A stretch of 64,000 bases of DNA from the NCBI RefSeq assembly GCF_054482595.1, contig NZ_CM137008.1. One strand, given 5' to 3'. Below are positions 40,427 to 42,520 of the stretch, one piece after another. The notes beneath the pieces are model-generated. The model did no database searches. It was given only the letters and a program-made list of their open reading frames with translations, and was not told the origin of the DNA. Numbering within the stretch: the stretch's first letter is position 1; every line of letters starts with the position of its first letter. Position numbers and translations under genes: made by a program.

Positions 40427-42520
40427 TTATACCAACGCGCTCTCCATCTGTTTTTCAAATGCCTGACGAATTAATCCCATAATGTAAGGAAGTTGTGCGA
40501 GGTCGCTGAAACAAATTTCCACATCACCATTGCCCCATCGCCCAACATTTGTCACATCTTTGGCAATACCTTTCGGATCGACCAGTTCATGAAACTGCAT
40601 ATTAAGCGACAATCGCAGTCGGCTTTTTTGCGGCACAACATCAACAAAATTCGTTTCAGCTTTAAACGCAATATATAGCTTCAATACTTCCTGCGTGATC
40701 CCTGCGTCCAGGCGCATAACTTCATCGCGAAGATGATCGAATAACACCCGGCTATGCGAACCATCAGCAAGAAAAGGATAATCACTCAGGCTGTAACTGG
40801 TTTTGTTTTCAGGCTGCCCCCGATAAACAGCTAAAACCTCTTCAGAAAGAGAAGGCGCTTGCCAGACCTGAATCGCGAGATCGGCCAGACGATCGGCTCG
40901 GGCGTGAATGGCGGCTTCATCCCATTTTTCGCACTGTCCAAGACCGATATTCAAATAGAGCGGGCTATGCTTAAAGCCGTCTTCAATATCGCGTTTTTCC
41001 GCGAAAGGTCTGTCACTGTAGCGGGAGTTATAGCGCGTTAATGTGAGATTCCCCAACGTATGCAACAGTTCTTTATGAATGCGTTGCCAGTCACTTCCCA
41101 GCTCTTCACGCCATTTAGCCGACAAATTTTCGTTCTGCGGCATAATATGCTCAATCGTAAACTCTTCCACGCGCTCTCTGCGTTTATCGTTTTCCAGTCG
41201 TCGTAACCAGTAGCTGCGACTACGGAAGTTATAGAGATCGCGAACTTTTAATTCCCGTTTAAATTCATCATCGTTGGGGAAACGACGATATGAAGGTAGA
41301 TTCAAAAAATGTACCTGAATACTTTCCAGATAATTTTCTTTATTAATAACTTTATAAAAAGTGGCAAATGTCTTGTTCAAAGAATTTGTCGGAATTGCAC
41401 ATACTGCACGGCGGAAAACATAAGATTCAATTAAACGAATTATGCTCAGAAAATCTTCGTGAGACAAAACGCCATTTTTATAGTCATGATAAAGCGCCAG
41501 TAAGAAAGGATACGCCACATCGACCTTTAACTCGCGCAAATCCTGAAAAGCCGTAGCAAGCGATTTGTCACTTTCTTTTCCCAATGCCATTGCACAGTAA
41601 TACTCCGCGTAGATATGAATATCTTCAACCAGCCGATCTACGCCTTTTTCAGCAACACTCTGGCTGCGGGCATGGAGTTTAAATGCCTCATAGACTTCAT
41701 CTGTCCGAGGGATCTCCCCCGTTTTTACCGTCAGATAATGACGCATAAAACTGTCAAAATATTCGCTGTAACCTTGCTGACCAAAGGCGACTTCCATTGG
41801 ACGCCAGTGATCTTCATACAATCGGGTTTGATGCTCTGGTTCGAGGCCCATCAGAATAAAATTGCGCACCAGATCGGCCTGACTTAACGCCTTACCGGTG
41901 GAGTTCATACTTTCAAAAATCAGTTGCGGATTATCCTGACCACGATTAAGCGCCACATCGACAATTAATAACTTTGCTAACCCACGACATAAGGGGATCA
42001 AGTCATCACCGAGTTTGGCAATTTGTTCATCAAAGAAAGTAAAGTTTTCCATTATTCGATGGGAATAGTTTTCTGGCATTGGTCTTTGTTTTATTAACGC
42101 CAGTAAACTGTCTTTATCAGTCTCGGTCAGCAGTAATTTAAAACCTTTCTCGCCGGACTCATAAGGATTGAGCAAATAATAATTACGCAATTTCATTGCC
42201 GAAAAGCCATCAAAAACTTCGTCTTCGCCAAGATGGCGCGATAAAGCCTCAATCAGCAACATTGCGGTCGTCAGCCGCTGCTGACCATCAATGACCAGCA
42301 ACGGAGAAATACCAGAAACCTGATACAATCCCTGCTCTATATAAACAACCGAACCGATAAAATGCGCTGATATATCGTCACGCTTTCCTGCACGAATGAT
42401 GTCGTCCCAAAGTTGCCGACATTGTTGTTCTGTCCATGAATAAGTCCGTTGATAAATGGGAATAACAAACTGCTGCGAACGTTTTAAAAAATCGAGTAAG
42501 CGAGCTTCTGTAGCTTTCAT
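40427..42520 (-). CDS. DUF262-DUF1524 fusion protein, GmrSD-like type IV (modification-dependent) restriction endonuclease
   Basis: 697-aa ORF. N-terminal DUF262/ParB-like motifs (IPIYQRTYSW, DGQQRLTT); C-terminal DUF1524 His-Me finger (EHIMPQN...GNLTLT); AT-rich. Confidence 0.75.
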   Translation of the reverse strand: MKATEARLLDFLKRSQQFVIPIYQRTYSWTEQQCRQLWDDIIRAGKRDDISAHFIGSVVYIEQGLYQVSGISPLLVIDGQQRLTTAMLLIEALSRHLGEDEVFDGFSAMKLRNYYLLNPYESGEKGFKLLLTETDKDSLLALIKQRPMPENYSHRIMENFTFFDEQIAKLGDDLIPLCRGLAKLLIVDVALNRGQDNPQLIFESMNSTGKALSQADLVRNFILMGLEPEHQTRLYEDHWRPMEVAFGQQGYSEYFDSFMRHYLTVKTGEIPRTDEVYEAFKLHARSQSVAEKGVDRLVEDIHIYAEYYCAMALGKESDKSLATAFQDLRELKVDVAYPFLLALYHDYKNGVLSHEDFLSIIRLIESYVFRRAVCAIPTNSLNKTFATFYKVINKENYLESIQVHFLNLPSYRRFPNDDEFKRELKVRDLYNFRSRSYWLRRLENDKRRERVEEFTIEHIMPQNENLSAKWREELGSDWQRIHKELLHTLGNLTLTRYNSRYSDRPFAEKRDIEDGFKHSPLYLNIGLGQCEKWDEAAIHARADRLADLAIQVWQAPSLSEEVLAVYRGQPENKTSYSLSDYPFLADGSHSRVLFDHLRDEVMRLDAGITQEVLKLYIAFKAETNFVDVVPQKSRLRLSLNMQFHELVDPKGIAKDVTNVGRWGNGDVEICFSDLAQLPYIMGLIRQAFEKQMESALV

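Follow-up and report, generated by a model that had tools for sequence, protein, structure and literature searches.

In Escherichia coli K-12, the interval between yjiS and symE, within the immigration control region (ICR), is occupied by yjiT, yjiV, mcrC and mcrB, whereas the same interval in the DNA studied here (the window, a 64,000-nucleotide stretch of contig NZ_CM137008.1 from assembly GCF_054482595.1) holds only one gene, which is GmrSD-like and lies on the minus strand. The locus raises the question of what this gene encodes, whether it is still functional, and what kind of restriction it might carry out in the place of McrBC. Our analysis favours, with moderate confidence, a GmrSD-superfamily nuclease that is functional, consists of one chain and stands alone, and which would form an interchangeable defence cassette of the ICR and act in Type IV, modification-dependent restriction.

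The gene itself has been described before. He et al. 2015 (PMC4437046, section 'Other gmrSD genes...', Fig. 8) reported it as APECO1_2080, with 24% identity to Eco94GmrSD, in an ICR holding rpn (transposase), symE (endoribonuclease), hsdSMR, mrr and yjiA (GTPase). They listed orthologs in CFT073, UTI89, clone D i14, ATCC 8739, EDL933 and others, with mcrBC replaced by gmrSD. The copies of clone D i14 and ATCC 8739 have 99% protein identity to the one in the window and lie in the same place, between the rpn/yjiS side and symE. The gene, its domain architecture and the fact that it stands in for mcrBC in the ICR have been known since that report, and we found no material difference from the published gene; in the ICR of the window the Type I system is gone, and a NERD-UvrD helicase gene is present in its stead. 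The new points are minor ones. They are the split of the gene in RefSeq as an annotation artefact, the Druantia origin of K-12 yjiT/yjiV, the unusually high conservation and Type I association of a DUF5655-bearing subfamily, and its closer likeness to DndI/SspE than to BrxU.

A three-domain protein of the GmrSD superfamily

The original prediction, made by reading the DNA without database searches, had described a 697-amino-acid (aa) minus-strand open reading frame (ORF) with the motifs of an N-terminal DUF262 domain and of a C-terminal DUF1524 His-Me finger. The ORF begins with ATG and has no internal stop, and all the quoted motifs were found in its translation. IPIYQRTYSW (aa 20-29, with YQR at aa 23-25) and DGQQR (aa 78-82) lie within DUF262, while EHIMPQ (aa 457-462, containing the E457-H458 pair) and GNLTLTRYN (aa 490-498, containing N491 and N498) lie within DUF1524. 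The Pfam profile check confirmed that both domains are present in this single polypeptide, and it added a third domain, DUF5655, near the C-terminus (coordinates and E values are given in Table 1). PADLOC matched the protein to 'Orf5' (PDLC02693, 2e-223), HEC-06 (1.5e-67) and mREase_IV (4e-28), and an NCBIfam search with the 697-aa protein gave no match. By every sequence criterion tested, the protein is assigned to the GmrSD superfamily.

The AlphaFold2 (AF2) model of the whole protein was confident, with a predicted local distance difference test (pLDDT) score of 89.6 and a predicted template modelling (pTM) score of 0.76. In this model an all-helical linker (about aa 228-445) connects DUF262 with DUF1524, and the nuclease domain shows a strand at aa 455-458 followed by a short helix at aa 468-474. 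The DUF5655 region is predicted to fold as helix, antiparallel sheet and helix, in a 'double-wing'-like arrangement of the YdhG/YjbR/DUF419 type.

Conservation was assessed in an alignment of 73 homologs, reaching down to 37% identity. Q24, R25, D78, Q80, Q81, R82, N206, G209, P461 and N491 were invariant in all 73 sequences, and G79 (72/73), E457 (70/73), H458 (71/73) and N498 (72/73) were nearly so. Published work has found the equivalents of DGQQR and of EH...N...N to be essential in Eco94GmrSD (D507/H508), BrxU, HEC-06, SspE and DndI. Mutation of the DH/EH pair abolishes activity in Eco94GmrSD, BrxU and HEC-06, and in HEC-06, a validated anti-phage protein, both DGQQR (Q79/R80) and EH (E471/H472) mutants lose defence. 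Because DGQQR and EH...N...N are conserved in the window protein, it is best read as a putative endonuclease or nickase of the His-Me finger type, regulated by nucleoside triphosphate (NTP) and directed at foreign DNA.

Homologous-protein searches found full-length three-domain homologs of 697-701 aa, at 69-84% identity, in several genera: Citrobacter, Nitrincola, Oceanimonas, Halomonas, Psychrobacter, Salinivibrio, Polycyclovorans and, in a different phylum, Kiritimatiella glycovorans. The dS to these homologs is saturated, and therefore the high similarity across taxa reflects constraint, not recent transfer alone. An exhaustive search of representatives returned 2782 clusters (50% identity) at E<=1e-30; many of their proteins run to about 700 aa and end in DUF5655, some lack this domain and have a length of about 560 aa, and some carry other extensions.

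An intact reading frame with signs of strong purifying selection

The RefSeq annotation implies that the gene is a decaying, non-functional relic. Even copies that are 100% identical to it are split by RefSeq/PGAP into a pseudogene ('DUF262 domain-containing protein, incomplete, missing C-terminus') and a 387-aa coding sequence (CDS) named 'GmrSD restriction endonuclease domain-containing protein'. Translation of five loci ruled out this split as a real lesion, as the 697-codon frame is uninterrupted in the window and also in XH990, ATCC 8739, clone D i14 and PigCaeca_2, whose proteins are 99-100% identical to it. Since the frame is open, the annotated CDS begins at the internal M311 and about 108 in-frame codons are left without annotation, the split is an annotation artefact. 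It was seen in the intact copy of XH990 and in three other fetched E. coli loci, and it probably affects most of the ~1000 carrier genomes that lack the O157 frameshift described below. A frameshift hidden within the ORF, which the original prediction had named as a concern, was looked for and none was found: the protein aligns end to end with the 697-701 aa homologs, M1 is nearly invariant, and the four other E. coli genomes share the frame.

Compared with three intact E. coli alleles, the gene showed a dN/dS of 0.041-0.056 at a dS of 0.065-0.105, which indicates strong purifying selection. By megablast, at least 80% of its length was present in 1360 of the 5426 complete E. coli genomes (~25%) at 95-100% identity, and a further 73 genomes carried an allele of 60-80% identity. 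A 2025 EcoSal Plus review (PMC12707154) gave GmrSD in 12% of 9,040 ICR loci. The most abundant enterobacterial GmrSD cluster in PMC12373910 (2025) is CLS_001, which lists RefSeq fragments of this same gene (WP_100736261, WP_001304006/7, WP_072202028 and WP_071531326). Because of the split annotation, counts of defence systems that draw on RefSeq proteins will miss or misname copies of a gene that is among the commonest of the GmrSD type in E. coli.

Real lesions do exist in some strains. In the O157:H7 strain examined (H2495), a deletion from G5 to G4 shifts the frame at codon 267, and the exact G4 allele was found in 298 of the ~1306 genomes that match this segment, mostly O157:H7. IS5 and IS1 insertions lie within the gene in THO-010 and E66. 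The O55:H7 genomes and O157:H7 strain SS17 gave a full-length match of 2094 nucleotides (nt), which suggests that they do not carry the G4 deletion. These lesions, together with the split RefSeq records, would fit a relic; against it stand the open frame in five genomes, the low dN/dS, the retention of all catalytic residues and the wide spread of full-length homologs, and we give almost no credence to decay as an explanation of the window gene. H2495 has a second GmrSD-like gene in its ICR, beside yjiA. This gene is of the CLS_005 type and 39% identical at its N-terminus, and it too is broken up, with a DUF262 piece of 285 nt and a separate HNH piece, so that both ICR GmrSD-type genes of this strain look inactivated.

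A probable role in Type IV restriction

We infer nuclease activity, NTP dependence, modification dependence and the target of the protein from its characterised relatives Eco94GmrSD, BrxU, HEC-06, SspE and DndI. The N-terminal ParB/Srx-like domain would bind and hydrolyse NTP through DGQQR, and in this way control the conformation or oligomeric state of the enzyme. The C-terminal His-Me finger, with E457/H458, N491 and N498, would cut or nick DNA, and the 'double-wing'-like DUF5655 domain may serve as a module for DNA binding or for recognition of the substrate. The target would most likely be foreign DNA with a modification that E. coli does not make; candidates are the cytosines that T-even phages hydroxymethylate or glucosylate, or some other hypermodified base.

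E. coli DNA bears Dam and Dcm marks. Among the neighbours of the gene in the window (symE/symR, an HsdR remnant, the NERD-UvrD gene, yjiS and yjiR) no methyltransferase ORF was found, and there are neither dnd/ssp genes nor hsdM/hsdS beside it. If a solitary gene without a modification enzyme is functional in a host marked in this way, its enzyme must spare both those marks and unmodified self DNA, and this sparing points to dependence on a non-host modification, i.e. to Type IV restriction. Two further observations support a modification-dependent Type IV nuclease. The ORF is intact though only a 65-aa HsdR remnant is left of hsd sequence nearby, and the gene sits in a recognised defence island, where it replaces mcrBC.

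The prototypes of the family, EcoCT596 GmrSD and Eco94GmrSD, are Type IV enzymes which depend on glucosylated 5-hydroxymethylcytosine (glc-5hmC) or 5hmC and are stimulated by NTP. The window protein shares with them the DUF262 and DUF1524 domains in a single chain, DGQQR, and an acidic-His pair in the His-Me finger. It differs from them by the extra DUF5655 domain and by having EH rather than DH, and whereas the prototypes are prophage-borne, the window gene lies in the chromosomal ICR. BrxU and HEC-06 are likewise single-gene DUF262-DUF1524 nucleases; both have been experimentally validated against phages, and both lie inside other defence systems. Their host systems are BREX or Hma, whereas for the window gene and its close homologs they are Type I systems or none. 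The EH(I)xP nuclease motif is shared between HEC-06 and the window protein. BrxU has an RLFDS nucleotide-binding motif, which is reported to be absent from HEC-06, EcoCT596 GmrSD and SspE.

Carrier strains, among them ATCC 8739/Crooks-type hosts and many extraintestinal pathogenic E. coli, may restrict phages or DNA with unusual modifications, and this is relevant to phage therapy and cloning.

Type I restriction-modification contexts of close homologs

We surveyed the gene neighbourhoods of nine homologs that share at least 69% identity with the protein. In eight of them the gene lies within or adjoins an hsdM-hsdS-hsdR operon, and in several the start and stop codons overlap. In Kiritimatiella and Salinivibrio the order is hsdM-hsdS-X-hsdR (X being the homolog), and in Halopseudomonas three other genes stand between hsdS and X; in these three genera X is directly upstream of hsdR in the Type I operon, with stop and start codons that overlap or abut. 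The order is hsdM-hsdS-Bro-hsdR-X in Oceanimonas and hsdM-hsdS-hsdR-YgjP-X in Psychrobacter, and in Citrobacter X is convergent with hsdR in the ICR, downstream of yjiS and three intervening genes. No Type I system was found near the Nitrincola homolog.

Within E. coli, the gene is convergent with a Type IB hsdRMS-symE segment in O157 and clone D i14. The three-domain allele with 77% protein identity (73-74% nucleotide identity; 73 complete genomes) lies at the yjiA end of the ICR, near a BrnA-antitoxin gene and divergent from Type I hsdMSR (HsdR 1087 aa). The more distant homologs, at 47-51% identity, lie in defence islands with other neighbours, such as methylases, UvrD helicases and integrases; as they are not always near Type I genes, the Type I link holds for the close subfamily only.

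This embedding of close homologs agrees with Machnicka et al. 2015 (PMC4619093), in which Type I genes are the commonest neighbours of GmrSD homologs and the link to RloF is noted, and with Payne et al., who report that Hma and Type I systems harbour embedded GmrSD-like genes. Machnicka et al. 2015 cites Miller et al. 2005 for the linkage of DUF262 genes, RloF among them, to Type I restriction-modification (R-M) loci. The close homologs of Kiritimatiella, Salinivibrio, Halopseudomonas, Oceanimonas and Psychrobacter, which stand between hsdS and hsdR or just after hsdR, resemble RloF in this respect. The window gene differs in that its Type I genes are gone, and the likeness to Campylobacter RloF drawn here is one of location.

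One explanation of these contexts would be that the DUF262-DUF1524-DUF5655 subfamily (at least 69% identity, from E. coli to Kiritimatiella) is a dedicated accessory of Type I R-M and not a free-standing Type IV enzyme. The YjbR-like double-wing and the DndI-like N-terminal domain would then read Type I methylation, or failed Type I restriction, and unmarked DNA would be nicked; the ICR copies of E. coli would be orphans that kept or retuned their activity. We regard such a dedicated role as quite doubtful.

A different proposal is that the protein is a DNA-targeting effector with another trigger, either a back-up that acts when anti-restriction blocks the Type I system, as for PrrC, or a nuclease that a non-epigenetic cue directs at the unmodified DNA of invaders. 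Its embedding in Type I operons of distant taxa, alongside Abi_C, AAA_13 and YgjP, would suit a back-up, and Payne et al. argue that embedded genes provide redundancy against evasion of the primary system. However, the gene persists in the window without a flanking Type I system, and all characterised DUF262-DUF1524 enzymes read the modification state of DNA, and a trigger of this kind seems to us very improbable.

DndI and SspE as the nearest solved relatives

The original prediction had placed the product among nucleases of the GmrSD/BrxU/SspE type. The family stood, on domains and motifs, while DUF5655 had been missed and BrxU is not among the nearest solved structures. In a Foldseek search of the Protein Data Bank (PDB), the AF2 model matched DndI (9JFL, 1.4e-16) first, then SspE (7DRS, 2.4e-14), and BrxU (7P9K) only at 8e-5, with a TM score of 0.31-0.36. 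A phmmer search of PDB sequences gave the same leading order, with DndI 9JFL best at E 6.8e-13 and SspE next, and BrxU gave no match there at E<=1. DndI and SspE are thus the nearest solved relatives by predicted fold and by sequence, a statement of relatedness only and not of shared function. The window protein has the N-terminal and C-terminal domain layout, the DGQQR NTPase and the HNH-type nickase of DndI (9JFL) and SspE (6JIV/7DRS). It differs from both in that they act with dnd/ssp phosphorothioation genes and sense phosphorothioate (PT), whereas no such genes adjoin the window gene; identity in the structural alignment is 15-18%, and DndI and SspE are without DUF5655.

These relatives raise another explanation, in which the protein would be a nickase that senses a self-mark, as DndI and SspE do, and nicks unmarked DNA as a second restriction arm of an R-M system, the mark being PT or the N6-methyladenine of a partner Type I system. 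The rank of DndI and SspE in both searches and the eight Type I contexts among nine close homologs are in its favour. The top PADLOC label also traces to DndI, as 'Orf5' goes back to ORF5 in the dpt cluster of Salmonella Cerro 87, which is DndI. We rejected this label as evidence of PT dependence, since the 17 'Orf5' hidden Markov models span diverse DUF262-DUF1524 proteins and the likeness to DndI is remote. The PT-sensing tyrosine of DndI, Y25, falls within YQR, a motif generic to DUF262, and so cannot tell the two readings apart.

Several findings speak against a self-mark sensor. Neither dnd/ssp nor hsdM/hsdS genes adjoin the gene in the window, yet its ORF is intact and under strong purifying selection, and the nine related contexts examined were also free of dnd/ssp genes beside it. 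DndI without its phosphorothioation partner has been reported to be toxic. Roughly 25% of complete E. coli genomes carry the gene, but PT systems are rare: PMC12707154 gives Dnd in 2% of hotspot-37 loci and no PT systems in the ICR. The E. coli copies vary in the Type I family next to them (IB in both O157 and clone D i14), some having none, and they are convergent with it, not co-oriented. We consider self-mark sensing unlikely.

The modification-dependent Type IV nuclease therefore remains our preferred reading, and the following points weigh against it. The embedding of close homologs in Type I R-M operons could mean functional coupling. A self-mark, phosphorothioate, controls the nearest solved relatives, which are not classic Type IV enzymes, and the protein is only distantly similar to the Type IV prototypes, judging by the low reported identity to Eco94GmrSD and the missing phmmer match to BrxU. 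The gene is dispensable, because it is frameshifted in the O157:H7 allele and interrupted by insertion sequences (IS) in some strains. In PMC12373910, one representative per group, CLS_001 included, was synthesised and tested against T-even phages, and 5 of 12 extra groups, beyond three named ones, restricted them, a count that the text gives without naming the groups.

The locus compared with K-12

The positions of the gene, its domains and motifs, its neighbours and the related copies are collected in Table 1.

Table 1. Positions of the GmrSD-like gene, its parts, neighbouring features and related loci (window positions unless a fetched locus is named)
Feature	Position	Strand	Basis or remark
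GmrSD-like gene, 697 aa	40427..42520	-	ORF; three Pfam domains; PADLOC; dN/dS; literature
DUF262/GmrSD_N (ParB/Srx-like NTPase) domain, aa 9-222	41855..42496	-	PF03235, E 9.4e-35
DGQQR motif	42275-42289		within DUF262 domain
DUF1524/GmrSD_C His-Me finger nuclease domain, aa 415-547	40880..41278	-	PF07510, E 2.3e-26
EHIMPQ motif	41135-41152		within DUF1524 domain
N491 and N498	41027-41050		within DUF1524 domain
DUF5655 domain, aa 591-690	40451..40750	-	PF18899, E 1.2e-12
Variable cassette between K-12-homologous symE and yjiS segments	40377..42612	.	blastn breakpoints vs K-12; 43.7% GC, 2.2 kb
GC-rich hairpin of 11 bp in the 46 nt that separate the stop codons of symE and the convergent GmrSD-like gene	40388..40413	.	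folding
96-nt leader, yjiS stop codon to the ATG of the gene	42521..42616	-	sequence
symE	40039-40380	+	NCBIfam SymE, 4e-68
symR	39968-40044		Rfam, 91.7 bits
HsdR C-terminal remnant	39627-39824	+	PADLOC REase_I, positions 967-1027 of 1029, 2.4e-22
96-nt stretch upstream of the HsdR remnant	39454-39548		82% reverse-orientation match to the 3' end of a 244-aa hypothetical gene
NERD + UvrD-type helicase gene, 616 aa	37535-39385	+	PADLOC candidate C3a187, 4.7e-141
rpnD (yjiP/yjiQ) homolog, 314 aa	44612-45556	-	intact ORF
Pentapeptide-repeat protein, 775 aa	51196-53523	+	31% GC DNA
Inverse-autotransporter adhesin, 1746 aa	56091-61331	+	N-terminus IatC-like, 1127 bits
K-12 MG1655 yjiT and yjiV	8415-9932 and 10136-12856 (fetched-locus coordinates)		PADLOC
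XH990, intact copy annotated as split	fetched locus 6001-8094		translation
O157:H7 H2495, frameshifted copy	fetched locus 9001-11093		G5 -> G4 deletion
O157:H7 H2495, second GmrSD-like gene	fetched locus 741-2392		CLS_005 type
E. coli allele with 77% protein identity	fetched loci 8001-10100		three-domain
244-aa hypothetical gene, matched stretch	fetched loci 10787-10882		downstream of the divergent GmrSD allele

A blastn comparison of window positions 35000-48000 with MG1655 4,564,000-4,594,000 found three K-12-homologous blocks: mdtM to yjiS, symE/symR (39908-40376, 92.5% identity) and yjiX-yjiA. The first of these ends at window position ~42613, immediately beyond the yjiS stop codon. This places the gene where K-12 has mcrBC, in line with the original prediction and with PMC4437046. 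The prediction's remarks that the gene is convergent with symE and AT-rich were also borne out, the GC content of the gene being 43.6% vs 53-54% in the yjiX-yjiA and yjiS-yjiR flanks.

The hairpin between the two convergent stop codons folded with -20.7 kcal/mol (z -3.9) on the plus strand and -20.1 kcal/mol (z -2.6) on the minus strand, and it is probably a bidirectional transcription terminator shared by symE and the GmrSD-like gene; it has no long T run and was not among the results of the consensus terminator scan. The consensus promoter and terminator scan of 39800-43000 gave nothing above shuffle expectation, and neither a promoter nor a terminator in the 96-nt leader. As the leader shows no terminator and no consensus promoter, the gene could possibly be expressed by read-through from yjiS, which is on the same strand, or from a weak promoter of its own.

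The original prediction had further suggested that K-12 yjiT/yjiV may be remnants of a gene of this kind. This was ruled out: when the K-12 region that includes yjiT and yjiV was searched by tblastn with the 697-aa protein, no similarity was found (best E 0.37). In PADLOC, YjiT matched DruH (3.7e-241, profile positions 1-503 of 1100, the N-terminal half) and YjiV matched a fragment of DruE (1.6e-285, profile positions 465-1071 of 2055). These profile matches identify the two K-12 genes as what is left of a Druantia type III system.

On the other side of symE, the symE-yjiA interval of K-12 contains hsdS, hsdM, hsdR and mrr, and that of the window contains the HsdR C-terminal remnant and the 616-aa NERD+UvrD helicase gene, in DNA of 37% GC. 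The remnant is what survives of a Type I system that has been deleted, and it showed no similarity to the Type IB and ID hsdR genes of the related fetched loci. The 244-aa hypothetical gene whose 3' end is matched just upstream of the remnant lies, in other E. coli, downstream of the divergent GmrSD allele. The helicase gene is probably another defence cassette. It has weaker matches to GajB and to helicases associated with defence-associated reverse transcriptases (DRT), and its RefSeq name is '3'-5' exonuclease'.

Farther along the window, the score of the adhesin's IatC-like N-terminus is under the curated cutoff. The rpnD homolog, intact in the window, is a pseudogene in K-12 MG1655. The region of O157 that corresponds to the pentapeptide-repeat gene, downstream of yjiL/ytiA, has espX6.

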